Assembly: GCA_951406725.2 (NCBI GenBank)
Contig: OX597840.1
Coordinates: 21,452,001 to 21,516,000, forward strand
Direction: 5' to 3'
Length of the DNA stretch: 64,000 nt
DNA from: Octopus vulgaris
Lineage: Eukaryota
The first letter of the stretch is position 1. Every line of letters starts with the position of its first letter. This document shows positions 6,945-60,710 of this stretch, piece by piece. The notes below the pieces were generated by a model, which saw only the letters and a program-made list of their open reading frames with translations, made no database searches and was not told where the DNA came from. A program made the translations under genes and the position numbers.

Positions 6945-7130
6945 ATTGGGAGAGCTTACGGAAAAAAACAAAAGACGAAGACAGGTGGTGTACAAAACAA
7001 ACAGATGTATTAGTATAAATGCTCAGGAATAGAAAAAGTCTTTTACATTTTGAGCCTACGCTCTTCTACAGAAAGGGATACAGAAAACAAGGAGAGAAAA
7101 AAATGTGTGTAGTGGCTAACGATCTATCAT
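6945..7130 (-). mobile_element. Short PLE-like element with a degenerate hammerhead motif (7039-7076); same family as 56545-56755
   Basis: Reverse strand CTTT-CTGTAGA-A-GAGC-GTAG-GCTC-AAA-ATGT-A-AAAG; flanked by (CA)n/(TA)n. Confidence 0.7.
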
Positions 7131-7999
7131 ATCTATATATATATAGATGGTTGGCGTTAGGAAGGGCATCCAGCTGTAAAAACACTGCCAGATCAGACTG
7201 GAGCCTGGTGCAGCCCCTGGCTTCCCAGACCCCGGTCGAACCGTCCAATCCGTGCTAGCGTGGAAAACGGACGCTAAACGATGATGATGATGATATATAT
7301 ATATATACACGACAGGCTTCTTTCAGTTTTCGTCTACCAAATCTACTCACAAGGTTTCATCGTGACACAGTGTGACAAGGCTGGCCCTTTCAATTACAGG
7401 TATAACAGTTTTGCCAGCTGAGTGGACTGGAGTATGAAATAAAATGTCTTGCTCAAGGATACGATGCCCCACCAGGAATTGAACTCCCGACCTTACAATC
7501 TTCAGCTAGACACTCTAACCACCAAGCTACGTGGACAAAACTTTCAGCTTTATACTCGTTACAGAATATGCATCAACACACCTGGATTAAGATTTTAATT
7601 CACTCCTTCCATCAAATTGATGTTGTCTGAACAGGTGCATTGTGTGCCACACATCAGGTGTTGAAGTAATCACAGAATAAACGTGAGATGAAGTGTTTTG
7701 CTCAAGAACCCAATGCAGTACCCGGTCTAGGGATTGAAACCACGATCTAGTGTTTGGGAGTGCAACCCACTAACCACCAGGCAATGCACCTTCAAAAGTT
7801 GCCAAGGTACCAAATGGAAATTCACACAGAGGAAAGCTGAGAGTTTGTTTATTAGAATAGGAAGTTTGTGTTGCACTTGAAAGCTCGTCAACCAGTCGGG
7901 AAAAACAATGGGCAAAGAACTGAATGTGCTGAAGTGGCTGAGAGATGCTTGCAAGAACAGCACTTGTACTTAAGAACCAAGGGATATACTACTACTACT

Positions 8000-8860
8000 G
8001 ACAGCTGTGTGAAGTGTCACACTCTAATGGGGGAGGGAACCTGTGGGAGAGGTAACCCCAAGAAGACATGGGATGAGGTAATGGAGCACGATTTACGAAT
8101 GTTGGCCCTCACAGATGCAATGACAAGCGAATGAGACCTTTGAAGATATGCTGTGCTTGAGAAGACCCATCAAGCTATGTGGGATCATAAATGTGGTCAA
8201 TGCCGGTGTTGTTTAACTGACCTGTTAAAAGCACCCTTCAGTTGTTGGATGATATGTTGTGCTGTTGTTGTTGTTGTTAAGCAACAAGACGGGTAAGGGT
8301 GATTAGGTGATGGTGTAGGGCTTAGGGGCGGGAGAACCCAGACCTTGGGAAAAAAAAAAAACTTTGGTTGTCATGTTGTAGTCGAGGGCACTTTGTTGAC
8401 ACCTGACACCACTGGGCGGTGGCCCTCGAAGTCGCTGGAAGTGGAGATCTCCAGGTCCAAATTCTTGAACGGTTATGCTGTGCTTGTGAAAACCTCGTAG
8501 TTGTAGCCGATGCTGGTGACACGTAAAAAGTACTATTTACGTGTTGGGCCTCATGGAGACAGTGACAGGTGACCAACACCCTTGGTGATATACCGTGGTT
8601 GTGTTGACCTATGAAGCCAAGTGAGACTGTAGTCGTGGTCAATGCCAGTGTCAGGTCAATGGTACCTGTGCTGGTGGCATGTAAAAAGCACCCACTACAC
8701 TCCAAGATTGATTGGTGTTAGGAAGGGCATCCAGCCATAGAAACCTTACCAAATCAGATTGGAACAAAGTGCAGCCCTCTGGCTTACTAGTTTGCAGTTA
8801 AACCGTCCAACCCATGCAGCATAAAAAGCAGATGTTTGATGATGATGATGATGATGATGG
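8000..8860 (+). mobile_element. Old RTE LINE 3' end with (GAT)n tail
   Basis: DSCVKCHTLMGEGTCGRGNPKKTWDEV followed by the shared tail GTTAGGAAGGGCATCCAGC...GATGATGAT. Confidence 0.75.
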
Positions 8861-10907
8861 TGTGTGTGTGTGTGTGTCTCTGAGTCTGTTTTTGTCCCCC
8901 ACAACCTCTTGACAACCAGTGTGGGTGTCTTTATATCCCTGTAAATTAGTAGTTCAGCAAAAGAGCCCAATAAAATAAGTATCAGGCTCAAAAAATAATT
9001 TTTTTTTTTAATTAAGTTTTGGGGTCAATTTCTTTAACTAAAACCCTTCAAGTGCCCCAGCATGGCTGCAATCCAATGACTGAAACAAGGAAAGAGTGAA
9101 AGATTCTGACACACAACATCTCACACCTGACAGAATCCAAATTCAATGTTATTTTTTATGTAATACAAAAAATAAAGTTTCACATTCTGCCAAAAAGCCA
9201 GCAGTTTTAGTGGGGGGAAGGGAGTCAGTCAATTACATTAACCCCAGAACATGACTGGTATTTATTTTCTTTATCCCAAAAGGATAAAAGGCAAAATTGA
9301 CCACAGCAGTATTTGAAATCAGAATGTAAAGCACTAGAAGAATTGCTCCTAAGTAGTTTACCTGATGTACTACTAATGGTTCTGCTAGCTTACTGTCTTC
9401 ATCACAGGTGAAGGTGCATGGCTTAGTGGTTAAGGTGCTGGACTCATGATTGTAAGATTGTGGTTTCGATTCCTGGACCAGGCAATGCATTGTGTTCTTG
9501 AACAAAGCACTTCATTTCACATTGCTCCAGTCCACTCGGCTGGCAAAAATGAGTTAATCCTCTGACAGACTGGCATCCCATCCAGGGGAATAATATCTAT
9601 GCCATGGAAACTGGCCCTTCTGAGTTGGTATGTCTCCGTCGTCATCGTCATCATCATCATTTAATGCCAATTTCCCATGCTGGCATGGGTTGGATGGTTT
9701 GGCAGGAGCTGGCAAACCAGGGAGCTGCACCTGGCTTCACTGTCCGTTTTGACATGGTTTCCATGGTTGGATGCCCCTCTTAATGCCAACCACAGAGTGG
9801 ACTGAGTGCTTTTTACATGGTACCAGCACCAGCGAGGTCTGTTTTGGCATGTTCTAACAAATGGATGCCCTTTCCAAATGCCAATCACTTTACAGCATGG
9901 ACTGGATGCTTTTTATGTGGCACCAGCACTGGCAGGGTCACCAAGTAACTTTGTAAGACAAAGACCCATTGAGGTGGGGAATATTGGAGGAGGCGACCTT
10001 GTGCCAGGTGATGAGAAGTCAGAGTGTGACAGACGGGTAGGAACAGGTGTCTTGCTGTAGAGGAGGTACATGGTTACCCAAGTCAGTGGGAGAGAGAGAG
10101 AGAGAGTGGAAGAGAGAGAGAGAGAGAGAGGAAGAGAGAGAGAGTGGAAGAAAGTGAGAGTGTTATAGTGCAAGAGAGAGAAGGGTGAGAGTGAGAGAGA
10201 GAAAGAGATGGTGGGAAAGTGCCAGGACATACCCTTAAGGTACAAGGATCAGAATATAAATCAGATGGTTGTGTATTGCAAAGGGTTACACGAGTAGGGT
10301 GTAGGGACTTCACATGAATGCAAAGAGTGGAGAGTGGGGATGGGATGCCCAGCTGGACTGGGCTGGGCTGGACTGGCTCCTGTGCAGGTGGCACATAAAA
10401 AACATCATTTGAGCGTGACTGTTGCCAGTACCACCTGACTGACCCTCGTGCCGGTAGCATGTAAAAGCACCCACTACACTCTCGGAGTGGTTGGCGTTAG
10501 GAAGGGCATCCAGATGTAGAAACTCTGCAGATCAGACTGGAGCCTGGTGCAGCCTCCTGGCTTCCTAGACCCCGGTCGAACCGTCCAACCCGTGCTAGCA
10601 TGGAAAGCGGACGTTAAATGATGACGATGACTATAAGCACAAGGCCAGAAAGTTTTAGCAAAAGGGGACAAGTAAATAGCATCAACCCCTGTACTCAACT
10701 GTTAGCTTATTTTATCAACCCTGAAAGAATGAAAGGAAAAGTTGCCTTTGGCAGAATTTGAACTCAGAATGTACAGAGTCAGAAGAAAGGTTACTAAGCA
10801 GTTTGTCTGACACATAATACAACTCTGCCAGCTCCCCCCCCCCCCCACTTCATCCAAAAACTAATGAAAGAAGCAAAATAATAATAATAACCAAAATTAA
10901 GAATTAC

Positions 10908-11027
10908 CTTTTTCTCCATATATGGCCCTTGCATTGATGGCACCCTGTTATCATATTGTCTGTGTTGGTTGAGCCTATCAACCCCTGGAGGGCCATCAAC
11001 AGGGCTCTGGGAAGCATACCCATCCAT
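10908..11027 (-). CDS. Probable first coding segment of an unidentified minus-strand gene (MDGYASQSPVDGPPGVDRLNQHRQYDNRVPSMQGPYMEKK); exon including UTR about 10908-11369
   Basis: Unique non-repetitive sequence; phase-0 donor AAG|GTAATT at 10907; acceptor TCTTATTTCAG| at 11370; no further coding exons recognised in the window. Confidence 0.5.
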
Positions 11028-19800: not shown

Positions 19801-19884
19801 CATATATATATATATATACTTTATTTTAAGCAGCAGAAAATTCAACAAAATCTGTTACTCTGAGTTTCTCGTTGCCGTTCATCC

Positions 19885-19937
<53 letters not shown>

Positions 19938-20008
19938 TGGAGTAAACACATAAATGTGAAACAAGGTGGAAAAAAAGAGTACTCAAATACCAAGGGTAGA
20001 GTAATATG

Positions 20009-20172
20009 CTTTATTTAAAAGCAGCAGAAATTCAACAAAACCTGTTACTCGGACTTTCACGTTCCTGTTCATCGAACAGTTTTGTTAAAATTTTAACAAA
20101 ACTGTTCGATGAACAGGAACATGAAAGTCCGAGTAACAGGTTTTGTTGAATTTCTGCTGCTTTTAAATAAAG
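20009..20172. repeat. Spacerless palindrome with 82-bp arms and 1 mismatch; PLE-like inverted terminal repeat with hammerhead-like motifs
   Basis: Centre AAAA|TTTT at 20090/20091; arms checked base by base. Confidence 0.92.
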
Positions 20173-20191
20173 TATATATATATATATATAT

Positions 20192-20400
20192 AGTTAATCC
20201 AAACAAGAAAACACAAAAAAAAACAGAACAACGCGAAGACGTGGGACAAATAAAGTATTATTGGACGCTCAGGAAAGAAGGGAAGAAGGAGGATTTAACG
20301 TTTCGAGCGGAGCTCTTCATCGGAAACATAGGAGAAGGAAAGATCCAGAGAAGGGAAGACAGAGGAAAAAAATCGCCAGCGGTACTCACGAGGTCACATA
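20192..20400 (-). mobile_element. Short PLE-like element with a hammerhead motif (20293-20327); same family as 56760-56955
   Basis: Reverse strand GTTT-CCGATGA-A-GAGC-TCC-GCTC-GAA-ACGT-T-AAAT; (TA)n on both sides. Confidence 0.75.
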
Positions 20401-24681: not shown

Positions 24682-25120
24682 CAACAGGCTTCTTTCACTT
24701 TCCATCTACAAAATCCACTAAAAAGGCTTTGGTTGGCCTGAGGCTAGAGTAGAAGACGCTTGCCCAGGGTATCATGCAGTGATACAAATCACATACTTTC
24801 CTGGAAATATGTGATTTGTAAAAATATGACATGTTAATAAATATTCGTATAAGTACAACCATCCAGATCTCTGAATACCTTATTTTTTCTAATACACACA
24901 CACACAAATAAAGGTTACAAACCTCATTAAGGGATAGCAAAATCCTATGAACGTACAAGTTAGTTACCTATACAAAGAATGTTGAACATTACAGTTAATA
25001 CTCAACTGCAAGGTAACTATATAAACCGTGGTGTATATATATATCTATTTATTATAAGAAAATAGAAAATTATTATTTATTATCTCTCTATTTTCTTATA
25101 TATATATATATATATAAAGT

Positions 25121-26192
25121 CTAGCTGCTAGAATAAGAATAGCCTGGGCTAAGTTCAGAGAGCTCTTACCTCTGCTGGTGACAAAAGGCTTCTTGCTCAG
25201 AGTAAAAGGCAGATTGTATGACGCATGTGTGCGAACAGCCATGCTACACGGCAGTGAAACATGGGCTGTGACTGCTGAGGACATGCGTAAGCTCGCAAGG
25301 AATGAAGCCAGTATGCTCCAATGGATGTGTAATGTCAGTGTTCATACTCAACAGAGTGTAAGTACTTTGAGGGAAAAGTTGGACCTAAGAAGCATCAGTT
25401 GTGGTGTGCAAGAGAGATGACTGTGCTGGTATAGTCATGTGGATAGCTGTGTGAAAAAGTGCCGCACCCTAGCAGTTGAAAGAACCCATGGAAGAGGTAG
25501 ACTCAGGAAGACCTGGGATGAGGTGGTGAAGCATGACCTTCAAACATTGGGCCTCACCGAGGCAATGACTAGTGACCGGGACCTCTGGAAATATGCTGTG
25601 CTTGAGAAGACTCGGCAAGCGCAAGTGAGACCATAACCTTGTAGCCTATGCCAGTGGTGTAACCAGTCCTCTTATGCATGCCTTTCCTTCATTGGAGACT
25701 AAACTCTGCTTGTGAAGACCTGTTGAGGCAAGTGAAATCAAAATCAAATTCGATGACTGACATCCGTGCTAGTGGGGCGCTAAGAGTACCATCCGAGTGA
25801 GATCGCTGCCAGAGCAACAAGCTGGCCTCCGTGCCCATGGCACCTTAAAAACACCATTCGAGTGTGATTGTTACCTGCGTCGCCTTACTAGTACTTGTGC
25901 TGGTGGTACGTGAAAAAACATTTGAGTGAGGTTGTTGTCAGTACCGCTGGACTGGCTCCTGTGCAGGTGGCACATAAAAAGCACCATTTGAGTGTGGCTG
26001 TTGCCAGTACCGTCCGACTGGCTCTCGTGCTGGTGGAACCCACTACACTCTCAGAGTGGTTGGCGTTAGGAAGGGCATCCAGCTGTAGAAACTCTGCCAG
26101 ATCAAGATTGGAACCTGGTGCAGCCATCTGGTTCGCCAGACTTCAGTCAAATCGTCCAACCCATGGAAAGCAGACGTTAAACGATGATGATG
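25121..26192 (+). mobile_element. 5'-truncated RTE LINE with ORF remnant, 3' UTR and (GAT)n tail
   Basis: [22 protein letters not shown]... same family as 975-1574; premature stop; starts at (TA)n. Confidence 0.9.
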
Positions 26193-31074: not shown

Positions 31075-31122
<48 letters not shown>

Positions 31123-31157
31123 AAGGTTAAGAGATGATGTACAGGTATTTTATATTA

Positions 31158-31486
31158 GAAGAAAATGAGGTACTCAGAAATTCGGATGGTTTTACATTTA
31201 CAGATATTTATTTGTATATTACATGCTTTTATGCATCATATAACTTATATCATATATCATATATATTAGCGCTTTCGTCCATTCTGGTAGATTTTTCAAA
31301 TGGAACTAAGTTCCATTTAAAAAAATCCACCAGAATGGACGCAATTTGAAAAATCCACCAGAATGGTCGAAAGCGCTATATATATGATATATGACATAAG
31401 TTATATGATGCATAAAAACATGTAATATACAAATAAATATCTGTAAATGTAAAACCATCCGAATTTCTGAGTACCTCATTTTCTTC
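31158..31486. repeat. About 330-bp inverted repeat made from a short repeated element (other copies at 24830-24895, 40155-40318, 45930-46165)
   Basis: GAAGAAAATGAGGTACTCAGAAATTCGG... versus ...CCGAATTTCTGAGTACCTCATTTTCTTC; central hairpin AAATGGAACT-A-AGTTCCATTT. Confidence 0.88.
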
Positions 31487-31559: not shown

Positions 31560-32314
31560 GGTTCCCTCCTATTTCATTTTCTTTCTATAATTCTGTTGTG
31601 TTCTCAGCATCATGTTCAGGAAATAATCTCCTAATATGTTTGTTCAGCATACTTCCTTAAATGTTGTTTCGTTAAAAAATAGAAAAGGTCCAGAAGTTGA
31701 CTCACCTTTAAATTTCCTTGGGTTATGTAAATACCTCAAGAGAGCCAAGGTTTCGACATTTCTTCTCTTATTATATCTAGGCAGAAGTCTTTCACGAAGA
31801 TTTAGAGCCAAAGGGTTGCCAACTATATTAAGTTTATTCACTAAAAACTCTAGAATATTCCGCTTTCAGTAAACCCGAATCATCAGCGCAAATAGCCTTC
31901 AAAAGAATTTCTACTGAATGCAGAATTTCATACAGTAAATCGAGAGATTTCCAGTCTTCGTCAGCGATGGGCATCTGTGGAAAGTTCTGCTCGTAGAGCA
32001 TTTGGAATGCAGCTTTTCAATTTCCAAAATCTCTCAATCATATGGAATGTGCCATTCCACCGAGTTCTGCAATCCAGTAGAAGTTTATATTCTCTCTTAT
32101 CAAAGTTCGCTCCTACAAAATCTTGCAAAATTTCATTTTTTGTAGGAGATTTACGGAAAAGTTTTGAAATTTTACTTACCTTATTTAAAACTTTGTTAAA
32201 TTCAGGTTTTAGCTGGGGAAAACAAGCATTTTCGTGAGCCAAATCTGTTTGACAAAGTATGTCTTGTTGGCTTATGTCAGTTTCATCATCACCATCGTCT
32301 GTTATGGCGATCAC
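31560..32314 (-). pseudogene. hAT (BED-type) transposase relic
   Basis: KVSKISKLFRKSP...LLLDCRTRWNGTFHMIERFWKLK matches the hAT DxxTRWNS motif; stops and frameshifts. Confidence 0.85.
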
Positions 32315-32760
32315 TGTCGTCTGTTATGGCGGTCACTATCGTCTGTTACAGCGATCTCTTCACTTTTATCAAAAAATTTAGTGTTCCTTCCTTGAAGTGA
32401 ATCTGGAACTGGTTATTACATATGCTCAACGGGAAAGATCACCCGACTGAAGACTAACAGCATCCCCTTGACTTGCTATGAATAAACTCAGTTACCTGCA
32501 AATTCAAAGAGTTAGCCAGGGGTTAGCGAAGGAGATGACAAGGTGCTGATCTAATGTTCAAGGGGAAATCAGAGTTTAACCTTCATAATTTTATTGAATT
32601 AGGTCCATATTTTGCCTTAAAAGGAAAATGTTGCTATCGATCTATTTTATTCAGGGTAGGCACTGCATACTTTGCTTACCTAGGCAGCATGTCCCTGAGA
32701 TATTTATATATATATATATATATAAATTGATCAAAATAAAAACATGATGCCAAGGTTTCA

Positions 32761-32838
32761 GCGGTACATATGTTTCGGGCCTTTATTAGACAGATTTATA
32801 ACAATGCATAATGTATGTCTGTGGCCTTCTTCAGCCGC
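32761..32838 (-). ncRNA. Type-I hammerhead ribozyme motif with a complete core
   Basis: GCGG-CUGAAGA-AGGCC...GGCCC-GAA-ACAUAUGU-A-CCGC; helix I GCGG/CCGC, palindromic helix III, GUA cleavage triplet. Confidence 0.72.
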
Positions 32839-32989
32839 GCACAACTTCCACAAGGACATGTGTTACATCAAAAATTCTTGGTTGAGGATGCAAATCCTCT
32901 CATTCGCGTACGACATAATGCGGCAGCATAGAATTGAAGCGTCCATCTCGTTCTTCTCTTATCAAGTACTCACCCCGAATTTCTATCTA

Positions 32990-37005: not shown

Positions 37006-37755
37006 ATATATATATATATATGTGTGGTCCCTTCTGGTGAAATGACATCAAAACAATTGCAGCGTTATCCTTCATCTTTCAATAACTGAATGGTCTTCTG
37101 TTTCTCTTTCTAATTTAGACTAAATCCTGGCCAGCCACTGACTTGGTAGCAACGTTGAGAAGGTAAGTCCCTTGTTTTAATCATCACTTTTAAATCTTAA
37201 GAAGTTTTTGAAGATTTTTGTAGTCCCGGATATCATGATCATTTGTAGTGTATGAATTAAGGACTTGCATTCTCTCCCCCAAGGGCCCAACTTCAGCCAT
37301 ACTTTGTTCCGTGACCAGTTTGGAGTATTTTATAAGTTTCTGCTGTGTGTTTTCCCAGTTTAACACAAAAAAACTTCATTGCATAGAGTGAGCTTTCAAG
37401 TTGTCTTCATGTCCCAACTGCATTCTGCAAACAAGTCACCTGTGACAAGGCAGCAATGTTCAGTCAGGTGTGGCGAAAGTGCTGTTACAGTCGTTTCCTT
37501 CACTCTGCAATAAAATAAAGGTGGCAGGTCAGCTTATTGAATGTATCAGTGATGCTACACTAAAATTACAATAATTCTATGACAGTTGTAACTGCCTCTC
37601 CTACAAAAGTCTCAAAGCTTCTGGAATGCACCTTTTTGTGTGTGTGTGCGCGCGCACACACACACACAATCATGCATGTAGTAGTGTTGACAGTCATGCT
37701 TTACAATTTTTGACTGCTTCAAAAATTGTAAAGCATGACTGTCACCACTGCTACA

Positions 37756-37800
37756 TGAACCTGAAGATTGCAGAATTTAATGCATGAAAGTTCTAGTTCA
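37756..37800 (+). ncRNA. Minimal type-I hammerhead ribozyme motif with a complete core
   Basis: UGAAC-CUGAAGA-UUGCA-GAAUUUAA-UGCAU-GAA-AGUUCU-A-GUUCA; 5-bp helix I; CUA triplet. Confidence 0.75.
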
Positions 37801-37944
37801 ATCAGAATGAACATTTAACATTCTACTATTTCATTTTATTTTATTTTATTCTATTATATTATCTTATATCATTATAAGATTGTAAATAAAACATGAAAAT
37901 CAGACAAGGGCGGAATTCCTTTTATTAATATATTCTTCTATACA

Positions 37945-38044
37945 CACTATATATATATTATATATATATATATATATAACAATTATATATATATGTGTGT
38001 ATATATATATATATATTTATATATATATTATATACCCCTCCCCG

Positions 38045-40121: not shown

Positions 40122-40155
<34 letters not shown>

Positions 40156-40337
40156 TAGAAGGTTTGGAGATGGTGTACAGGTATTATATATTAGAAGAAA
40201 TGAGGTACTCAGAAATCTGGATGGTTTTATATTTACAGATATTTATTTGTATATTACATGTTTTTATAAATCATATATCATATATTAGCGCTTTCGTCCA
40301 CTCTAGTGGAGTTTTACATATATATATATATATGCGT

Positions 40338-42307: not shown

Positions 42308-43187
42308 GAAATAAATTATTTCTATTTGCTTTAAAATTTTAAAAATCATCCTAATTCGAGCAATTATACATCTTCATACATATACGTTGGTTTCGTATTT
42401 CTCTACGCAACTGTTGCTGTGAATAACTCTTCCACTAAAAAAAAGTTATTAAACTAGAGAAATGTAATTATAAATTCTTAAATCATTTATTAAAGTCTTG
42501 AAACATCAATTAAATGTTAAATAAATTAATGATTATAATAAACTAAGGTTCTTCTTAACTTTCTTCCAACAACCTGATATCTTTCAAAGTGTGTTGTTCT
42601 GATGTAGTTTTGCATATTGATGACGAAAATAACATTTTTTCGGGAAATCATTAATAATATCAATAAATAAATATTTCGTTTTTGGATTTGGTTTGCAAGA
42701 TCCTTTATGTGAGTTCGTGTGTTGAAGCATATTCTGTTGCGTCTGGGGAGAGACATTCTCTTTTTCTGTGCCTTATTATGTAACACACTCACTGGTGTTA
42801 TATATTATAAGGCACAAAAAGAAAATGACTTCCCCAGACACAACAGAATAAATAAAACGGCATTCTAATATTTCTGGTTAATATCTCAAGTTTATTAATA
42901 ATAGTGATATCTTGACTCGTCTGTCTTTATGTTCTGAGTTCAAAGTCCGCCGAGGTCGATTTTGCTTTTCATCCTTTCGGGGTCGATAAATCAAGTACCA
43001 GTTGCGTACTGGGGTCGATCTAATCTACTGGCCCCTCCTCCCCCAAAATTGCGGGCCTTGTGCCAAGAGCAGAAAACAAGTGAAATCGTGACTAACGCAG
43101 TTACCTCCCTTCTTTCCTTCATTGATTTTGGTTTTGTTTTGAAATCTTCAGACGAAATCCTTCCTTGATCGGAACTTTTCAGGCCCT

Positions 43188-44492
43188 ATGGGTGGTCGAC
43201 GCGTGGTAGTGACCGGGGCTGGACTTGTGTCCTGCTTAGGAAGTGATGTCCAAAAAGTATGGCAGCGAATATTGGCCGGCGACTCTGGAATATCTTGTTT
43301 GAAGGACAAAGCTTACCAAAACATTCCGTGTCGCATCGCGGGGGTCGTTCCCCGATCGGGACAAAACGATGATTCGTCTGACATTGTAGACATCGACAGC
43401 TTTGTAACCCCTTCCCAGAAGAAGATCCTGTCTTTGTCTTCCATATACGCGTTAATTGCGGCCGAAAATGCCCTGAAAGATGCTCAATGGAAACCCGAAT
43501 CCGAGATGGACCGACTACGGACTGGCGTGGCCGTCGGAGTGGGCATGGTTGACATGGAAGAAATTTTCCACAGTGGTAAGACACTCTATGAGAAAGGTTA
43601 TAAAAAAGTGAGCCCTTTTTTCATCCCTAAAATACTTATTAATATGGCAGCCGGACATATAAGTATGAAGCATTCCTTGTGTGGTCCGAACCATTCGGTG
43701 TCGACAGCCTGCGCCACGGGGTTGCATAGTGTTGGCGATGCTTTTAGACTAATCAAATACAATTCTGCTGATGTAATGTTAGCAGGAGGTGTCGATGCTG
43801 CTGTCAATCCACTTGCAATTGCAGGCTTTGCTAAAATTCGAGCGTTGAGCACAAATTTCAACGAAGAACCACACAAGTCCTCGCGTCCTTTTGACCGTCA
43901 ACGCGACGGGTTCGTCATGTCGGAAGGTTCGGCTTTGCTTGTTCTCGAAGAATTGGAGCATGCTAAACAAAGGAATGCTCCCATTTATGCTGAAGTCCTT
44001 GGTTACGGTCTGACTGGTGACGCAAACCATATTACTGCCCCCAGAGAAGACGGGTATGGTTCTTACCATTGCATGAAAATGGCCATTGAAGAAGCTGGGG
44101 TCGATGTTTCAGCGATAAATTACATAAACGCACACGCAACCTCAACGCCACTCGGTGACGCCGCTGAAATCCGTGCCATTCGGCGGCTCTTCGGAGACCA
44201 CTGTGATAAATTGAAGATATCTTCAACTAAAGGCGCCACGGGACATTTACTCGGGGGAGCTGGAAGCATAGAAGCTTTATTTACTGTTCTCAGTTTGAAG
44301 ACTGGGGACATTCCACCGACGATTAATTTAGAGAATCCCGATGAAGAATTCACTGGATTGGATTTGGTTCCCATTCACAGCTCCAAACTTACTGACGATT
44401 CACAGCGCTGGGTTGCTCTTAGCAATTCTCTGGGGTTTGGAGGGACCATTGCGTGCGTCTGTTTCGGATCCATGCCTCTGTCCAAGTCTTAG
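43188..44492 (+). CDS. OXSM: 3-oxoacyl-[ACP] synthase, mitochondrial (FabF/KAS II family); the exon probably starts at 43152
   Basis: RRVVVTG start, STACATG (catalytic Cys), SRPFD, GFVMSEG, INAHATST and KGATGHLLG (two catalytic His), GFGG near the C-terminus; 434 uninterrupted codons. Confidence 0.96.
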   Translation: MGGRRVVVTGAGLVSCLGSDVQKVWQRILAGDSGISCLKDKAYQNIPCRIAGVVPRSGQNDDSSDIVDIDSFVTPSQKKILSLSSIYALIAAENALKDAQWKPESEMDRLRTGVAVGVGMVDMEEIFHSGKTLYEKGYKKVSPFFIPKILINMAAGHISMKHSLCGPNHSVSTACATGLHSVGDAFRLIKYNSADVMLAGGVDAAVNPLAIAGFAKIRALSTNFNEEPHKSSRPFDRQRDGFVMSEGSALLVLEELEHAKQRNAPIYAEVLGYGLTGDANHITAPREDGYGSYHCMKMAIEEAGVDVSAINYINAHATSTPLGDAAEIRAIRRLFGDHCDKLKISSTKGATGHLLGGAGSIEALFTVLSLKTGDIPPTINLENPDEEFTGLDLVPIHSSKLTDDSQRWVALSNSLGFGGTIACVCFGSMPLSKS

Positions 44493-46158
44493 CACAACCG
44501 CTACATTCACTGCCCTAAAAATTTTATCAACCAACTGAATTTGCTAGAAATAGCAGTCAAAATTTCTCAAAAACTCTTTCATTAGTTACAAACAAAAAAC
44601 AATCTAGGTCTTGAGATATATACTTGAAAATAGACAGGATGGTCATGGTTGGAACACCTTTAGTAATAAATATACTGACTCACGGCTAAACAACAACAAG
44701 GAACAACTCCCTATGTCTACACCTATTTGTTGTATTGGACCCTCTACATATCAACCAGGAAGCTGCTGTGTAGCTGCCCAGCTTGCTAGAAATAGCAGCA
44801 AAATGCTTTTGAATCATACCCGACCATCTTAAAGAAAAAAGAGTCTGTCCCAGATATACAAAAAAGATGCAAGAGTCAGGACTTGAACAACATTGCTCAT
44901 AAGTTTGCTCAATCAGGCCCTACCTGGGGTTATACAACAACATTCAGACCCTCCTAAAATGTGTGTACTCAGGCAAAAATGATAAAACCTTGACTTTGTA
45001 AGTTACTCTCACTGTACCAGGGGTAGGTTTTCTAAGCCCTTTTCTTTTCCAAAACCAAATCCAGTTCAACCTTTCTCTCCTCTAATTGTCTCTTAACTCT
45101 TCAGCATCCACATTACTTCATCAAATGTAATTCCTCTTCTTATTGCTTTGAATTAATCATGTATTATCATACATACATTGTTCACTTCCCAAACATTTGT
45201 ACATCGCTGCATATGCTTTATACGCATTTTTGATAAGCTGTGGTGCACCTGAACTCTGTATACAATAATTTCATTATTATTATTATCATATAGATTTGAG
45301 GTTTCAGTGATGTGATTGTTTATTTTTAGAATGACATTGTGTAGGGTTGGTGTGAGAGGCTGGATCTGGCCAGTTTGAACATAAACCAGGTGAAACATTT
45401 GAGCCTGGTATGACTGGTATAAACACTAAAGGGTTAAACTTGAGTCTACCTGTGAAAACCAAGATGTTATTAATAATCAAAGAAATTCTCTTCACCATTT
45501 CGGGTCGAATGATCGTTTGGCAAATTGTGGATTCTGACTGTCATTAACCAATCACTAATCAATTAGTTTACTTTGCTGTGCCAGAACATTCCGTGATCCC
45601 CACCCTTTTTTTTTGTTACCAACTAAGATCTTCTGCATTCACCCCTTTGTTACCAAAATTCTGTTGAAAAACACTTTGTTTCATTTAATTTGAAAACAAG
45701 GAAGAATTCAGTCAACAAACTTTGTCGTTGTTAATCTGGTGTTTGGAACATTAATTCACATGAAACTGAAGCAGGGAAGCTGTGCCATAGAATCAGGGAT
45801 GGTCTCTCAGGCAGGTCAGTGTGAAAAAGGGTTAAAGTATGCAGTTTAAAATTATGATTCCAATCAAAATTTCATTATAACATTGAATGACAAGATTCAA
45901 GTTTGTCAACATTATATATATATATATGTATAGAAATCTGGATGGTTTTATATTTACAGATATTTATTAATGTCACATGTTTTTATAAATCATATATTAG
46001 CGCTAATAGAGTGGACGCAAGCACTGATATATGATATAAGTTATATGATGCATAAAACCATGTAATATACAAATAAATATCTGTAAATATAAAACCATCC
46101 GAATTTCTGAGTACCTCATTTCTTCTTATATAAGATACCTGTACATCATCTCCAAACC

Positions 46159-46235
<77 letters not shown>

Positions 46236-51691: not shown

Positions 51692-51747
<56 letters not shown>

Positions 51748-51832
51748 GGTGGTGGTGGTGGTGGTGGTGGTGGTGGTGGTGGTGGTGGTGGTGGTGGTGA
51801 TGATGATGATGATGTTAATAATAATAATAATA
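51450..51832 (+). mobile_element. RTE LINE tail ending in an expanded (GAT)n(GGT)n(AAT)n tract
   Basis: One unit of the 61-bp repeat plus the shared tail. Confidence 0.8.
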
Positions 51833-54800
51833 CTAAAAACTCACAAGTAAAGCTTGGGTTAGCAGTAAAGTCCACACAACCTTTGATGCAAAATCTTATC
51901 TCTGCCCATTGTATCAATATCTCAATTCATATTGTCTCCTTGGTTTACTTCTCTGAAACAAAGAGAATATGTTTTATTTTTTTGCTCTAATTATCTGCTT
52001 AATTACCTCTAATCACAGTTTGATATTCACTTCTAACATCGATGTTAAAAATCTAGGCCTACTTTTTATTCTTTTCTTTTTTAATTCAAGGTAAATGCTT
52101 TTTGTTACAAAATAAAATTTAACTTTAAAACCCACCCAAAGTCCTGAAAAGAATCCTCTTGAAAACCACAACAAATTAAAATATTTACAAAACCACAACA
52201 AATTAAAATATTTACAAAATTTTATCTTTTTAATGCATACAACAAGTTACATAATATAGGTGCTGGTGGCTTTCTTATTTCTTTATTGCCCACAAGGAGT
52301 TAAACATAGAGGGGACACACAAGGACAGACAAAGGGGTTAAGTCGATTACAGCGATCCCAGTGCGTAACTGTTACTTAATTTATCTACCTCGAAAGAATG
52401 AAAGGTAAATTCGACCTCGGTGGAATTTGAACTCAGAACGTAACGGCAGACGAAATACCGCTAAGCATTTCGTCCGTCGTGCTAACGTTTCTGCCAGCTC
52501 ACCACCTGATGTGGTATATTACCGATATTCCCAGCCCCGGAACATAGCAAACTATTGCAAACAGAGAAATGAAAGACATTGTTCTTGTTTTGATATCCAC
52601 TTTTCCATGCTTGCATGGGTCAGACAAAGCTTATTGAAGCAGATTTTCTCCAGCTGTCTGCCTTTCCTGTTGGCAACCCTCCAGACAAGTCAGACTAAGT
52701 AGAATCGCTGTCTTCCACACATACAGGCTTCTCCTTTCAGATGCCGGTGCCACATAAAAAGCACCGGTGCCACTGTTGTCTAAGTGCACCTGCACCAGTG
52801 TGGGGGCACATGGCCTAGTGGTTAGAGCAGCGGACTCGCGGTCGAGGGATCGCGGGTTCGTATCTCAGACCGGGTGATGTGTGTGTTTATGAGCGAAATA
52901 CCTAAGCTCCACGCGGCTCCGGCAGAAGGTAATGGCGAACTTCTGCTGACTCTTTCGCCACAACTTTCTCTCACTCTTTCCTCCTGCAAAGGACCAGCGT
53001 CCTGTCCAGGTGGGGAACCTATACGCCAAGGAAACCGGGAAACTGGCCCTTATGAGCCAGGAATGGCTCGAGAAGGAACAACCAACCAACTAACCTGCAC
53101 CAGTGGCATGTAAAAAGTTCCCAGCACACTCTGTTGAGTGGTTGGCATTAGGATGGACATCCAGCCATAGACACCATGCCACAACAGACAGTTGGAGTCT
53201 GGATGGCTCCCTGGATGGTTAGTGAATGTTTAACGATGATGAGGATGAGGATTGGAAATGAATGACACTGCTTGGAAGTCAAGACAAGGAGACAACACAC
53301 ACACTCTCACACACAAATACACACACACATATATGATCATTGTTTGCATTATTTACATGCCCACGGGCATATGGTGTAGGGGTTAAGAGCATGGGCTACT
53401 AACCCCAAGATTCCGAGTTCAATTCCAGGCAGTGACTGTAATAATGACAATAATAATAATAATAACATCGAAAAATACCTTAGGAATGAGACCCCAGGTT
53501 CGAAATTTCCCCAAGACACCTGATGAAGGCTGGAGGGTATATCAACCGAAACAAGATGAGGACACATATCCGTCAAATGTAAATAATGTAAATAATGTAC
53601 ATAATTCCTCATCTCTTCAATATAGAACATATATGACCATCCCCACCTGCAGCTTCCCTCCAATCACAAGAAGACACTTACCCAGGGATTGAACCTGAAA
53701 CGATGAATCTGGGAAGCTAGCTTCTCAACCACACCACCCTTCATATACCTTTTACTCTTTTACTTGTAGCCATGCTGGAGCACTGCCTTAAATGAATTGA
53801 CCCCTGTACTTATATTTGTTTTAAGCTTGACACTTATTCCATCAGTCTCTTTTGCCGAACCACTAGGTTGCAGGAATGCGAACACACCTGCACCAGTTGT
53901 CAAGCGGTGGGGGGGGGGACAAACATGGACACAAAGACACACACACACATATATATGTCTGATGGGCTCCTTTCAATTTCCATCTATCAAATCCACTCAT
54001 AAGTGGTGCCACATAGTGGAACTGAACCTGGAACCATGTGGTTGGGAAGCAAGCTTCTTACCACACAGCCATACCTGTGCCTATCTATTTCCATATATAT
54101 ATATATATTTATAGCCATTTATAACCCATTTCTATTAAATCCTGCAACGTCCTCACATAATATGGATATTTGTAAGGAAATGGTTCTGTTGACATGCTCT
54201 GATTCAGAAGAAATAACTGGGTCAGGGACTTCAGTCCAGTCGTCCATGAAATGTTGTACAGCATTTAAAGAGCAAGGAAAACAATACCCTACAAGTTGAG
54301 GGTCACAACTCAAGAAGCTCTGGGTTCCTGCAGATCTTACCATACAAAAGCAGAACACTTGAGGAACATCAATTTTTTTTTACGTCAAGTCCTAGGACAC
54401 ACAGACACACATTTATTATTCTTACAGAAGAATGTTGTTGACAGTGACATCGAAGTTTCAGCCAAGTTAAGCCATGGTTGGAAGCCTGATGATGGCTTGG
54501 CTGACCGACACTTCGAAGTCACTGTCAACAAGATTTTTGTTTAAGAATAATAAATTTAAAGTATACTAGCCATCTGAATATGGCTAACCACTAGGGGTGG
54601 GGGTGGTGTTACTGTAGCTTTTTAGCCCCAGGAGAACATCGTCTCCAGCTGGCCTTAGACACAATTCCTGTGCCCTTATGATATTCGCAATAATATTCGC
54701 TAATAATAAATTTAAATCTACAAAACTATAGAATAACCCATCAGACTGAAGTAAAATTGTTTTTATTAGAACTGAATTAATACCATCCACAGACCTACGA

Positions 54801-54929
54801 CATGTCCTCTTCATTCTCAGTGAAAACTCCTCCTCCTCCTCTTCCTCCTCCACCACCTTCTCCTCGATGGTAGTGGTGGTGGCTTTATCTTGTATCCAAG
54901 AATTTAGATTTTTCTTTGTCAAACGCTTC

Positions 54930-55292: not shown

Positions 55293-55297
55293 TAATA

Positions 55298-55355
<58 letters not shown>

Positions 55356-56544
55356 TGTGTGTGTGTGTGAGTGTGTGAATGTGTGTGTGTCCCTTTGAAA
55401 TGAGGCTGGAGGGACCAGCTGATATATATATATATATATAATATATATTCACACACATACACACACACACACAACACACACATATGAGCGGGTGCTGAAA
55501 CATTCCTGGCTTAAGGGTATCACAAAAGGTCTGGTTGGAAGCCCAACCTTCCAAGTTCTTTTACGGGCCTTAGAAAAGCAGAAGGACTGCTGCGATAAAG
55601 TTCAAATATGTGTTAAAACAAGAAAAAAATAAAAAGAAGTACTGGAGGTGGGGTCGATACATTTGACTAAAATTCTTCAAGGTGGTGCTGTAGCATGGCC
55701 ACAGTCTAATGACTGAAACAAGGAAAAGATAAAAGATAAAAATATATATTATTTTATGTATGTATGTGTATGCTTTGGAACCAAGAGTTCAAATACTGAA
55801 ACAACATTCTGCTCTGAAGAAGACATCTTTATTGTTTTAAGCAGAACGATCTATCATGAAGGATAAATTGCCAGTCATCACCTCCTCTCCCCAACCAACA
55901 AAACTTATTTTGCCTGAAACATTAAACTTAAAACTTTAAACTTTTGCTTCTTTTTCAATTCATAAAATTATTTTCCACTTTAAACTCAATTTGTGTGACA
56001 ATTAATTAACAAAGATCATCATTAATTCTCTCATATTCTACTGTTTTACTAATTAACCAATCACTGTAACGTAATTAAATGGTTGAACAACAGCTTGACT
56101 AAAACTAGGTGAAGGGTCAGCGTTTTATAGGACGTCTATTTTCAGAGCGTTTACCAACACAATGAGCAAGCGATCAAAGTCTTCAAATAATTACCAATAC
56201 AATAAAACACAGATCAAAAACTAATCAGATAAGATTTTCTATCCCAGCTGAATTGATTTTATTATTTCTTTCATTTGATTTTGGGAGTATTTTGCTGGGG
56301 GGCGGGGGGTGGGGGGTCTTTGTTATCTCTGTGACAAAAGTGTGTCAGATTTGGTATTGTTTCTTTGTGATTTTCTGTGCCATTACGGTCAAAGACAACA
56401 GCAACAACAACAACCACAATCTCAAGATGTATCACGACTACAATATATATTTAATACACTGTTTTTTTTACAAGATGTTTGGTCAAAGCAAACTCTAAAA
56501 TTCCAATCCAAAAGAGAAAACACACACACACACACACATTTACA

Positions 56545-56955
56545 TAACTATATACATACATGATAGATCGTTAGCTCCTACACGCTTTTTTTTCTCTCCT
56601 TGTTTTTTTCTGTGTATCTTTCTGTCGAAGAGCGTAGGCTCGAAACGTAAAAGACTTTTTCTATTTCTATTCCTGAGCACTTTACTAATACAATTGTTTG
56701 TTTGTACTTCACCTGCCTTCGTCTTTTGTTTATTTTCGTAAACTTTCCCATTACATATATATGTGACCACGTGTGTAACGTTGGTGATTTTTTTCCTCCG
56801 TCTTCCCTTCCTTGGATCTTTCCTTTTCCTATTTTTCTGACAAAGAGCTCTGCTCGAAACGTTAAACCCTCCTTCTTTCCTTTTCTGAGAGTCCAATAAT
56901 ACTATATTTGTTCCACGTCCTCACGTTGTTGTGTTTTCATGTTTGGATTAACTAT
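56545..56955 (+). mobile_element. Two adjacent short PLE-like elements, each with a hammerhead motif (56617-56653 and 56833-56867)
   Basis: TCTTT-CTGTCGA-A-GAGC-GTAG-GCTC-GAA-ACGT-A-AAAGA and TTT-CTGACAA-A-GAGC-TCT-GCTC-GAA-ACGT-T-AAA; joined at a TATATA tract. Confidence 0.75.
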
Positions 56956-57240
56956 ATATACATACATACACACACATACATATATTTACATAAATACATA
57001 CACACATACAAGCATATATACATACATAATATTTACAACCGAAAGAATAAGTACTGGGCTTACAAAGAATATAAGTCCTGGGGTTGATTTGCTCGACTAA
57101 ATGCGGTGCTCCAGCATGGCCACAATGAAATGACTGAAACAAGTAAAATAATAAAAGAAAAGAATAATACACACACACACATACACACATACATGTTTGT
57201 ATACATGCATATACAAACATATATTTCTCTCTCTCTTTTC

Positions 57241-57275
<35 letters not shown>

Positions 57276-57379
57276 CGTCAAACAATGAGAATGAGTGCTC
57301 AACGCTGCGTTGGTGGATAAAATTTCTTTATTTGTCTATTAAAGCTACCATGGGTTTCATGTTAAGAAAAATATCTTAA

Positions 57380-57600
57380 CCCTTTCGTTACCAACCTGGC
57401 TGAAACCGGCTCTGGCTCTGTAGTACAAATGTCTTGTTTCCATAAGTTCTGAATTAAAATCTTCCTCCAAACCTTAGTCCCAATTTATGTTCCTAACATT
57501 AGCTTAATGATAACGAAGTTATTTTATTAAATTCTTTGTTATATTTAAAATAATTGAAAGAGACACAGAGCATCCCAAAATAAATACGGTAATGAAAGGG
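57380..57600. mobile_element. piggyBac-type MITE
   Basis: TTAA TSD on both sides; 13-bp TIR CCCTTTC(G/A)TTACC. Confidence 0.88.
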
Positions 57601-57832
57601 TTAATATCCTAACAATTTTTCAAGCCAATCACACAGAAGAATGGTGTTCATCTACATTTTCGATGAAAACACCATAAGTTTTTATAAAATATATTTATAA
57701 GAGACTGGTTTGGAAAGTAGGATAATCAGATAAGGCATGGGATGAGGTGGTGAAGCCTGATCTTCATACTTTGAACCTCACAGAGGCAATGATTAACGAT
57801 CAAGGCCTTTGGTGATAGGCTGTGCTTGAGAA

Positions 57833-58250
57833 GTCTTCAAAGCCACAGTCGAACCAATTCTACTATATGGCTCAGAAACCTGGACGTTATCAAAGAAGCT
57901 TGAGAGGCGGTTGGATGGAACCTACACTCGCCTCCTTATGAGAGCTCAAAATCTCTCGTGGAGGTGCCATCCAACCAAAATGCAAATATATGGGAAACTA
58001 CCACCTGTATCATCTCTTGTGAAAGGTAGAAGAGTCCAGTTTGCTGGACATTGTTGTAATTTCTACTCTTCTCCTCTGGAAGCCATCTGCTCACAATGCC
58101 AGAGGGCGTACACTCTCCTACCCTGATGTAATCTCCAGGGATACAGGCATCCAGCAACAGGACCTCCGTAATGCTATGATGGATCGTGAAGTCTGGCGTA
58201 GCATAGTAAATTCCCTTGTCTTGACCACGGTTGAACAATGATGATGATGA
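57833..58250 (+). mobile_element. 5'-truncated RTE LINE (second family) with an (ATG)n tail, nested in another LINE
   Basis: FKATVEPILLYGSETW...RRVQFAGHC; 12-bp TSD TGTGCTTGAGAA at 57821-57832 and 58251-58262. Confidence 0.88.
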
Positions 58251-59769
58251 TGTGCTTGAGAAATCATAGTCGTGGCCGATGCTGGTAACCTACACATAAA
58301 AAGCACCCTTTGAGCATTAGGCTTCACGGAAGCAAGGTGGCCGATGCCGGTAGCACATGGTAAGCTCTTTTAGAGTGTTGGTCCTCACAGAGGCAATGAC
58401 AAATGACCGAGACTTTTGGCTTTATGTCGTGCTTGAGAAGAAAAGCCATCAAGCCGAGTAAAGTCGCAGTTGTAGCAGATACCAGTGTCGTGCAAATGGT
58501 ATGTAAAAGCACCCACTACACCTTTGGAGTGGTTGGCATTAGGAAGGGCATCCTGCCATAGAAACCATGCCAAAACAGACTGGAGTCTGGTGCAGTCTTC
58601 CAGCCTTGCCAGCTCTGGTCAAACTGTCCAACCCATGCCAGCATGGACAATGGCTGTTGAATGATGATGAAGATGATGTATGTTCATATGTATGTATGAT
58701 GGATACATACATGCTCACACACATACATATACACACATACACACACAATACATACAAACATACACACATACATACACATACATATATACACATACATACA
58801 TACACATACAGACATACATACACACATATACATACATGCATACACACACACATACATACACAATACATACAAACATACATACACACATGCATCCACATAC
58901 ATACATATATGCACACATACATACACACACATGCATACACATACATAAATACACACATACATATATACACACACATAGATACATGTATACACACACATAC
59001 ATACACACACATACATACCCATACATATATATACGCACATACATATATATACACACACATACATACATGCATACACACACATACATACATATATGCATAC
59101 AGATACTCACATGCACAGACACACGTATGCACACACACACAAACACATGGAACCGCACTCACACACAGTGACACAGAATACAAACGCTTTGCATTTCATG
59201 TCCATTAGTGTCTTCCATAGTTTCAGTAGCAAAACACGATTGACCACGGCAGAACCTAACCCCAACCTTTCCTGAAATAACAAACTGAAATTTAAAATTT
59301 GTTGAACATGTCTGAACATAAATGAAATTGTTTATCTGATGCTTACTTACACTTCCATGGAGGTGTTGTTTTGTTGACACAGCTGATATAAATTAATTAG
59401 GAATAATTAAAAAACTAGATATTACTTTTCTCTAGTTCGCTTTGCTAAATGTTTCTCGCAGAATTCACAATTAGAGAAAACATTATTAAGAGATTACGTT
59501 CACAAGTTAGGAGTTGACTGCTATTTTTACTCCTCAATGCTGACCTGTTTGTGATTACCTGTGCTTAGGTGTTTGTATTTAGTTTAAAATCTTAAACATC
59601 CGATACAGCAGCCCCTACTATAATGAGGCCCTAGTTGCTAGCGGGTTCAGGGACTGCATCTCCTACATGCTGGGCCCTAACACCCGCTAACACCCGCAGA
59701 AGGAAGTGCTGCTGAAATATCATTTCGTTTCTCAGCCACCTTCTCTCTCAATGTAAAAACACGTGTAGG

Positions 59770-60430
59770 TAGGCTATTCCTTAGGTTAGTAGATAAGCAT
59801 TTTACACAGTCACATAGCTACGGATGCAACAGACACAACCTAAGGATCTGTTTTAGCTGCACCATCAGCATTAAGAGTATTTTAGTTATCTCCCCTAGTG
59901 GAAGTGGGATGCTTGTGCAGGGATTAAAGGGAGGCCAATGCGAAACCAAAGAGGTTGTTTACAAGGCTGAGGTGATATCTAACCCTAACGACAGCAGTAG
60001 CTTCCCCAACTACAGTAGCAGGAATGGCAATATTAATGGCAACAGAAGCAACTCTAACAGAAATAGCAACAACAATATCACTGATGATAATGCTAATAAT
60101 GATAACAGTAACAGCAACACCAACAGCAACAATACCAGCATCAGCAGCAGTGGAAGCAGCAGCATCAACATCAACAGAAACAATATATGAAGATACATTG
60201 GATGTTCTAGAAACACCTTCAAGTAGCACCTCTCAAACCACAGATGCTCATTCAGGATGACAGAGAGATGATATGCCGCATCCTTGGCCAGTTATGTGTG
60301 GTGCTTGAAGGATGAAGGAACTCCATATGTTATCTCATGGAAGATCCTAGAAGTATCAGGCCCCTATATCAACAAGAGCAAGTGTTGCAAGCTGTAGATA
60401 GCTGAATGAGCGAGAACTCCCCTTGACCTG
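59770..60430 (+). pseudogene. Penelope-like element ORF C-terminus with a GIY-YIG endonuclease, decayed
   Basis: FLRLVDKHF...GQCETKEVVYKA...RYIGCSRNTFK*HLSNHRCSFR...LASYVWCLK...ISWKILE...PY...CCKL; several stops. Confidence 0.8.
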
Positions 60431-60651
60431 GGGAACATCTTAAATTCCAGAACGGAAGCCTTCTAACCCTGCTTACACTTCAGCAGTTTCCTACTGAAGT
60501 CCTGGAACCCACAAGCCAGCCATGTTGACTACAGATAGAGTCTAAGGGGACAATCCCTTGCGCTTAACCCTTCATCGAAGTGGTCAACAAGTGACTACAA
60601 GGCCTTTTTTCTCTCCACTTTGTAGAGAGGTTATAGACCAACTGGCTCTTA

Positions 60652-60710
60652 GGGTCTGAAGAAACAGTATAAAGCTAAGTGCTTTATGCAGGTGAAACCC
60701 AGGGTGACCC
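60652..60710 (+). ncRNA. Hammerhead motif in the PLE 3' region, probably inactive (G at position 17)
   Basis: GGGU-CUGAAGA-AACAGUAUAAAGC-UAAGU-GCUUUAUGCAGGU-GAA-ACCC-A-GGGU-G-ACCC. Confidence 0.75.

Follow-up and report, generated by a model that had tools for sequence, protein, structure and literature searches.

What are the short, hammerhead-bearing repeats that crowd the microsatellites of an octopus genome? The window analysed here is a stretch of 64,000 nucleotides of Octopus vulgaris (assembly GCA_951406725.2, contig OX597840.1, positions 21,452,001 to 21,516,000, forward strand), in which the original prediction saw parallel, stand-alone non-autonomous or retrozyme-like families. We consider it highly probable that the eight families to which nearly all of the sites belong (A to G and I) are instead hammerhead-bearing 3′ terminal repeats (pseudo-LTRs, pLTRs) of protein-coding Penelope-like retroelements (PLEs), all eight sitting at the ends of elements that encode a reverse transcriptase (RT) and/or a GIY-YIG endonuclease (EN).

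The claim that hammerheads occur above chance held. A strict descriptor, whose core list and spacer rules were fixed after the family alignments had been viewed, found three complete motifs in the window (56622, 32834 and 20323), and a fourth at 31299 if a 2-bp helix I is allowed, against a mean of 0.03–0.13 for local dinucleotide shuffles (n = 30); in 600 kb sampled from the genome it found 16 strict motifs against none in five shuffles. The first version of the strict descriptor had been dropped as too narrow. The first, generic descriptor gave three matches at a score of at least 7 against 0.1 in shuffled sequence, and no excess at low scores (3 vs 1.9). Rfam 15, run on the window, returned no hammerhead, only false matches to microsatellites and hairpins, among the 150 of 260 matches that were listed.

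Chance matches in low-complexity DNA, to which we give practically no weight as a general explanation, do account for the site at 55808 (55800..55850, + strand) and for the low-score descriptor matches, which stand at shuffle level. Site 55808, predicted to be a truncated hammerhead, lacks box 2, lies outside every family and was rejected as a family member, its single match in the genome being itself. For the other 14 of the 15 listed sites chance is refuted: they fall into the eight multicopy families, with 40–80 scored matches and 743–2911 first-look candidates per family, and family majorities keep the full architecture with differing helix sequences, including U3–A8 covariation. The supposedly unrelated contexts do resolve into eight families, but B and C have helix II and helix III in common. 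From the 600 kb sample we estimate approximately 150,000 copies and 75,000 strict motifs genome-wide, so the very large number foreseen is borne out; extrapolation from the window itself, where copies are about five times denser than the genome average in that sample, overestimates the total roughly fivefold.

Helices I and II, an extra base after A9 and a palindromic or near-palindromic helix III are present in the families. The core boxes (CUGANGA and GAAA..UH) are canonical in the majority of copies of C, D, E, F and G. Family A carries U4C in 28 of 30 copies, B has U6 in 29 of 30 and A6 in none, and I has a covariant U3–A8 core in 24 of 25, with a helix I of only 2 bp; the first helix II pair is mismatched in D, F and I. 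The proposal of dimer-type hammerheads agrees with the minimal type-I motif and the palindromic or near-palindromic helix III read from the family sequences, and with cofolding of two copies of a real sequence, for which the minimum-energy fold in D, F and I is a dimer with an intermolecular helix III and an intact helix II. Against the dimer fold, B, C and G prefer other intermolecular pairings and helix II of A misfolds, and cofolding favours the dimer arrangement for D, F and I only. Among copies of one family the core is hardly better conserved than the flanking sequence, and less so in A and F, so that selection is visible only between families.

The identity of the repeats is indicated by their long copies, where in all eight families the sequence upstream of the repeat leads into GIY-YIG or RT coding sequence, as the predicted link to PLEs implied. 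In family D, locus L124 has an RT+EN frame of 665 aa that is contiguous with the hammerhead; over 3.4 kb the locus is 96% identical to L133. In family A the EN lies 1.1 kb upstream (L131/L129). Family E has an EN relic in the window and at 6 of 24 other loci, linked by a family A EN query (E 5e-10); BLASTP of the protein P0001 gave no significant match to the relic frame. Neither Pfam nor a PDB sequence search returned anything for P0001, and a search for its homologues returned 713 proteins, mostly unnamed, including two from Argonauta hians. Coding links were also found for B (L374/L394), C (L348/L357/L358), F (L323/L366), I (L411/L419/L424) and G (L203/L191/L192), the last with a Penelope/Poseidon-like EN upstream in long copies. 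The upstream content comprises an RT domain and EN in B, C, D and F, only EN and linker in A, E and I, and EN alone in G. Against the assignment, the long copies examined are frameshifted or begin with an inverted arm, and none of the 36 long loci scanned has a direct upstream pLTR or an intact full-length ORF.

Judged by motifs, the families would comprise three of Hydra type (A, D and E), four of Neptune type (B, C, F and I) and one Penelope/Poseidon-like (G). The Hydra-clade DKT motif and CxCX5C linker both occur in D, while A is truncated before them and the linker of E is decayed; the EN CxxC and CxH around the conserved E and N are found in A and D (L133) and are decayed in E, and the longest D copy is truncated ahead of the region of the N-terminal RWK motif. 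The Neptune-clade CX2-5CxxC linker before GIY-YIG is present in C, F and I and partly decayed in the two B copies examined, and C has the DKG motif.

Most copies in the window are damaged, and only three or four still match the full motif. Family B is represented by two solo pLTRs, one at 6945..7130 (−) with a degraded hammerhead (site 7039; core CUGUAGA, G12 lost), the other at 56560..56752 (+) with a complete motif (C3 at 56622) and the family-wide A6U. Stacked in the same TA tract as the latter is a family C solo pLTR (56761..56952, +), the core of which (site 56833, core 56837) is broken by G8A; the second C copy (20193..20395, −) has a complete motif with core C3 at 20323 and U4C. Family A has a stub between (TA)n runs (19820..19886, −; site 19840), 5′-truncated into helix I with the 5′ strand missing, and a head-to-head pair (19937..20172) composed of a tailed arm (20009–20086, −; tail of ~72 nt at 19937–20008) and an untailed one (20095–20172, +), both hammerheads being mutated (sites 20041 and 20102; C3U and broken helices).

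A head-to-head pair of family I (31121..31480) has the U3–A8 core, with one arm (31164–31303, −) holding a complete motif with a 2-bp helix I plus a tail, and the other at 31336–31480 (+). A family I stub (40155..40315, −; site 40287) is 5′-truncated inside box 1, and a two-arm stub (45932..46165), absent from the original prediction, retains only the 3′ part of the motif. Sites 31268, 31350 and 40287 had all been taken for 3′ halves; the family behind the first two has a complete core in 24 of 25 copies. The family D 3′ end (32725..32959, −; C3 at 32834), with an 8-nt palindromic helix III, combines a canonical core with a full set of helices, as no other copy in the window does. The family F pLTR (37675..37945, +) has a short fold-back at its 5′ boundary and a mutated helix III (site 37756, core 37761), and the family G pLTR (53359..53628, +) consists of a tRNA-like A/B-box segment, (AAT)n and a hammerhead (site 53516, core 53520) with a 15-nt deletion. 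In family E (59616..60790, +), a decayed Hydra-type RT-thumb/linker/GIY-YIG relic (59616–60508) precedes the hammerhead (site 60652, core 60656), which has G at position 17; the GIY-YIG relic reported before a hammerhead was thereby confirmed.

TA targeting was likewise confirmed for seven of the eight families, whose (TA)n ends far exceed the background. TA repeats lie within 120 nt of the model end in 29/30 copies of A, 48/58 of B, 50/55 of C, 29/30 of D, 12/20 of E, 23/30 of F and 16/25 of I, against a background of 13.5%, and within 10 nt in 43/58 of B and 50/55 of C, against 3.6%. Family G, to which site 53516 belongs, is TA-bound in only 2 of 25 copies, and its window copy is not. The distance from model end to TA is bimodal in A, D, F and I; copies of the seven families reach (TA)n at either of two 3′ end points, and 23 of the 26 two-arm loci have a tail on exactly one arm. 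The 5′ ends of short copies concentrate at a single boundary in C (32/33), A (34/41), B (22/28), G (32/37) and F (15/30), and 5′ truncation, an inverted arm and an optional tail are all present in these families. Given the common 5′ boundary, the (TA)n ends with or without a 33–72 nt tail and the head-to-head pairs, we read the short copies as solo pLTRs.

The sharp 5′ boundary is equally consistent with short independent templates. The short copies could be self-propagating non-autonomous elements, each a solo pLTR with an internal promoter (a Pol II initiator or, in G, tRNA-like Pol III boxes) giving a 100–330 nt RNA copied in trans by a partner Penelope enzyme, a course of events that we regard as rather unlikely. 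The boundaries of C (TCATTC), F (ACAGTC) and A (CTATTTT) fall at initiator-like words, and 18 of the 20 head-containing copies of G begin within ~15 nt of a putative A-box/B-box segment read by eye. Short nonautonomous Penelopes and Chlamys elements are on record, the Penelope promoter has been placed inside the pLTR (Schostak 2008), and pLTRs act in trans (Arkhipova 2013). On the other hand, run-off from the upstream pLTR of an ordinary tandem transcript would yield an identical boundary, as would fold-back at palindromes or TA microhomology, and the hairpins of G and F lie exactly there; nor do the alignments viewed show an obvious split between short and long sequences. Unit-length 'mini' copies with a preferred 5′ boundary mean that solo pLTR transcripts may nevertheless have been copied in trans.

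Family G invites a stronger version of this idea, which we hold to be similarly doubtful: a SINE-like element with a tRNA head, moved by a Penelope enzyme; the element's Pol III A and B boxes would produce a solo hammerhead RNA of ~300 nt that is recopied in trans. The 5′ boundaries of the other families would then be transcription starts, their solo pLTRs would breed independently, and non-canonical cores such as A6U would be tolerated. The tRNA-like segment also lies in the 3′ UTR of the autonomous family G element. Against a tRNA origin, Rfam found no tRNA match in two family G heads, and ARAGORN none in 18 family G loci. Should family G prove to be Pol III-driven, a Penelope element would have a SINE-like partner, a pairing of which our literature search found no example in print.

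Classical non-LTR retrozymes, that is, tandem units of 150–450 bp whose hammerheads release circular RNAs, agree with the octopus repeats in size range and type-I hammerheads, and their origin from pLTRs has been argued in the literature. We nonetheless consider them a very improbable explanation, largely refuted for the eight families: every family is linked to an ORF, and the window contains no same-strand tandem of one family. Moreover, the motifs are minimal and not canonical, copies span both sides of an uncleaved site, and their 5′ starts, inspected for a cleavage-defined end, do not cluster at the cleavage site.

We return to the reading of the repeats as PLE termini, each feature of which has a match in the literature (Cervera and de la Pena 2014; Craig 2021; Arkhipova 2013; Schostak 2008). 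Insertion into (TA)n would likely be carried out by the GIY-YIG endonuclease and reverse transcriptase that each element encodes: the endonuclease would nick (TA)n, and the RT would start at either of two positions at the end of the pLTR and usually halt at the pLTR 5′ boundary, probably a transcription start or a hairpin. Halting would leave a solo pLTR, fold-back a head-to-head pair, and read-through into the ORF would be occasional only. A second copy is predicted to be necessary for hammerhead helix III, so that cutting would be restricted to tandem precursor RNAs; a solo copy would ride along inactive and later decay, mostly at CpG.

The estimate from the 600 kb sample implies that one octopus genome holds some 10^5 hammerhead-bearing pLTRs, contributed by eight or more parallel Penelope lineages; this is at least ten times the counts for other animals given in the accessible part of the 2014 survey (PMC4209133). 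The main text of the octopus repeat paper that we checked does not mention ribozymes. Since the A6U, U4C and U3–A8 families have amplified as well as the canonical ones, the octopus offers a natural test of whether the pLTR hammerhead must cut for Penelope mobility. Apart from the possibly Pol III-driven family G, the repeats show known biology, in high copy number. The location of hammerheads in pLTRs, motif counts in the thousands per genome, tails, inversions and insertion at TA (also by the octopus Hydra-1_Obim) are already published, and the additions are small: family-wide core variants (A6U, U4C, U3–A8) and the tRNA-like A/B-box segment at the family G 5′ boundary.

The comparisons that follow refer to the consulted parts of the papers cited. 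Metazoan non-LTR retrozymes (PMC7229834; bioRxiv 10.64898/2026.07.22.740005) share short non-coding units and type-I hammerheads related to pLTRs, but form head-to-tail tandems without an ORF, whereas the octopus repeats stand singly or head to head and are the ends of elements that do carry one. Metazoan PLE pLTRs carry minimal hammerheads, at 2,000–9,000 motifs per genome (Cervera and de la Pena 2014, PMC4209133), and resemble those described here in the minimal type-I form, the extra nucleotide after A9, the palindromic helix III and the U3–A8 variant, as well as in the large number of families within a genome, in copies that are mostly single and truncated, and in opposite-strand pairs 100–700 bp apart. 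They differ in number, our estimates being ~75,000 strict motifs and ~150,000 copies, and in the family-wide A6U and U4C cores of the octopus, a taxon that does not appear among those in the consulted part of that survey. The Penelope pLTRs of Adineta vaga and Drosophila virilis (PMC3846280, PMC2377424) are alike in their ~200 bp length, in their solo copies, in the tail that one inverted arm may carry, in the palindromes where head-to-head copies join and in an initiator-like or internal promoter; solo pLTRs are far more numerous in octopus, and the consulted parts of these papers describe no tRNA-like boundary segment such as that of family G. Neptune-clade PLEs (Craig et al. 2021, PMC8557442) share the C-terminal GIY-YIG after a CX2-5CxxC linker (C, F and I), DKG (C) and the microsatellite bias. 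Hydra-clade PLEs, including Hydra-1_Obim of Octopus bimaculoides (same paper), share DKT, the CxCX5C linker, EN CxxC and CxH, a canonical hammerhead and (TA)n insertion, and, compared by eye, the relic of family E is similar to Hydra-1_Obim; A and D are other families, with long low-complexity 3′ UTRs of 1.1–2 kb and tails of ~70 nt against 30–40 nt, and the hammerhead sequences are not the one listed for Hydra-1_Obim.

Own-genome searches assigned 14 of the 15 hammerhead sites listed in the original prediction to eight multicopy repeat families, and the feature is real: family A (sites 19840/20041/20102), B (7039/56617), C (20293/56833), D (32761), E (60652), F (37756), G (53516) and I (31268/31350/40287). 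The remaining site, 55808, matched nothing but itself and was ruled out as a family member, and a further two-arm stub of family I (45932-46165) was absent from the list. With a generic descriptor, three good motifs were found in the window (56622, 20323 and 56837) against approx. 0.1 of equal score in 20 shuffles; its low-score matches in the window showed no excess over shuffles. A refined descriptor, tuned post hoc with the families already known, likewise exceeded shuffled sequence. In the window it returned three complete motifs (four once a helix I of 2 bp is allowed), and 30 shuffles gave 0.03-0.13; in a 600 kb genome sample, made up of 60 stretches of 10 kb at systematic spacing, it returned 16, and five shuffles gave none. 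Most copies in the window carry damage, with the canonical core and all helices present in the D copy only. The window is microsatellite-rich, and its TA tracts hold stacks of different families at 19820-20395 (A+A+A+C) and 56560-56952 (B+C); comparable stacking was observed in further genomic loci, e.g. L008 and L041.

Family profiles, with cross-hits removed, detected 16 arms in the window (2.5 per 10 kb) and 32 in the sample (0.53 per 10 kb; bootstrap 0.35-0.73). For the 2.8 Gb host genome the sample extrapolates to approximately 150,000 copies (98,000-205,000), its positions having been derived from underestimated chromosome lengths, so that some distal regions were under-sampled. The strict descriptor extrapolates to approximately 75,000 motifs genome-wide and exposed two further hammerhead families outside the window's list, one having U3-A8 in its core and AAUU as helix III (loci L253, L285 and L290), the other arranged as an inverted pair whose helix III is an 8-nt palindrome (L266).

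The repeats had been read as parallel non-autonomous or retrozyme-like families related to Penelope-like elements (PLEs); the Penelope link stood and the stand-alone status did not, as long copies of all eight run upstream, on the same strand, into coding sequence for a GIY-YIG endonuclease (EN) or a reverse transcriptase (RT) plus EN. Clade names were assigned from motifs, not from a tree. Family D carries a 665-aa RT and GIY-YIG frame with DKT, CxCX5C and an EN with CxxC/CxH, which are diagnostic for the Hydra clade (Craig 2021, PMC8557442), and in family A a Hydra-type EN is located 1.1 kb upstream. The GIY-YIG relic predicted ahead of 60652 was found as a decayed Hydra-type sequence of family E at 59616-60508 (E 5e-10 with the family A query). 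By eye it is similar to the octopus element Hydra-1_Obim, and the asparagine-rich insert within its EN (59980-60190) occupies the place of a short N-rich insert there; such inserts are known in rotifer Penelope (PMC3846280). Families C, F and I have a Neptune-type linker and GIY-YIG upstream, as does B, its linker partly decayed, and in family G a Penelope/Poseidon-like EN ends approximately 30 nt ahead of the repeat. Neither an intact ORF nor a direct upstream pseudo-LTR (pLTR, the PLE terminal repeat) was found in 36 long loci scanned.

Other coding sequences were observed alongside. An intronless 449-aa ORF at 43143-44492 (+), matching the beta-ketoacyl synthase N- and C-terminal Pfam domains, is probably a mitochondrial OXSM-type gene. 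Tandemly duplicated intronless ORFs at two fetched loci, L359 (5313-6857, -) and L360 (3851-5227, -), look by eye like putative SAMHD1-type HD-domain proteins, each unit adjoining a family I copy. By eye, the frame at 31961-32323 (-) resembles a hAT transposase relic, and those at 1172-1498 and 25116-25442 resemble RTE-type LINE RT relics. A 61-bp unit forms a 15-copy tandem array at 14-924.

Family majorities show type-I architecture, with helix sequences differing from family to family. Helix III is a palindrome or close to one, reading ACGU in B, C and G, AGUACU in F, AGCGCU in I and ACAUAUGU in D; in A and E it is a 4-bp stem closed by a 1-nt loop. When two copies were cofolded, D, F and I adopted the dimeric fold and A part of it; B, C and G paired in other ways. 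Core conservation within families did not clearly exceed that of the flanks, as dead copies would lead one to expect. Core variants are family-wide traits: C4 occurs in 28/30 copies of A and 9/25 of F, U3-A8, a covariation of the 3-8 pair, in 24/25 of I, and position 6 of B is U in 29/30 copies and A in none. The U3-A8 covariation is known from Schistosoma PLEs (Cervera and de la Pena 2014, PMC4209133) and elsewhere, and U4C and A6C are previously known variants of low activity; A6U was absent from the paper on low-activity core variants, and a literature search on it gave nothing relevant.

The predicted TA enrichment held for families A-F and I: TA runs lay within 120 nt past the 3' end in 29/30 (A), 48/58 (B), 50/55 (C), 29/30 (D), 12/20 (E), 23/30 (F) and 16/25 (I) copies, against 13.5% at random positions; it failed for G (2/25). 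The distance from copy end to TA has two modes in families A, D, F and I, which reflects an optional tail of approximately 33-72 nt, and among 26 two-arm inverted loci the tail was on exactly one arm in 23, on none in two and on both in one. The 5' junctions cluster within 10-19 nt on the upstream side of an anchor position (C 32/33, A 34/41, B 22/28, G 32/37, F 15/30), in a count that leaves out loci fetched as long copies, draws mostly on queries starting close to the anchor and includes extensions that can halt early at reference-specific variants; off-target copies of A, B and C have the same junction modes.

Around the established ORF linkage, TA context, two 3' end points, 5' boundary and inversions, a model may be drawn in which EN nicks (TA)n and RT would initiate at the pLTR end, mostly halting at the pLTR boundary or folding back. 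The chief alternative, in which short transcripts of solo pLTRs (copies lacking the coding part) are copied in trans, predicts the same 5' boundary as the RT-stop model. Clustering of 5' ends at the cleavage site was not seen. The hammerhead is predicted to require a partner for helix III and would therefore act in tandem precursors only, and inverted pairs place the two motifs on opposite strands, thus precluding partnering in cis.

The family G pLTR opens with a tRNA-like segment in which words resembling the A and B boxes can be read by eye, and continues with (AAT)n and the hammerhead. Each of the five head matches from sample plus window has a triplet run behind it, and four show the G body directly; among 20 head-selected copies the body was present in 17, and 18 start within approximately 15 nt of the head. 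The segment also belongs to the 3' UTR of the autonomous element, and a natural palindrome lies at the 5' boundary. Rfam and ARAGORN did not recognise the head, and a literature search found no tRNA-headed Penelope pLTR.

The octopus repeats add further family members to an already known kind and stand out for copy number and core variants. Minimal hammerheads have been described in the thousands per genome, most of them coming from truncated PLEs and showing low activity as dimers (Cervera and de la Pena 2014, PMC4209133). Craig 2021 (PMC8557442), the sole relevant paper among those listed in a search on octopus and hammerhead ribozymes, reports a hammerhead and (TA)n preference for Hydra-1_Obim; an octopus repeat paper records 31 recently active Penelope-like families, its main text containing neither 'hammerhead' nor 'ribozyme'. 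Truncation, inversion and tails are described for PLEs in general (Craig 2021), with tails of 30-40 bp, roughly half the approximately 70 nt of A and D. A promoter internal to the pLTR is reported for Drosophila Penelope (PMC2377424), and rotifer Penelope (PMC3846280) is described as having solo pLTRs bounded in this way, tails on one side only, palindromes at the junctions and words resembling initiators.
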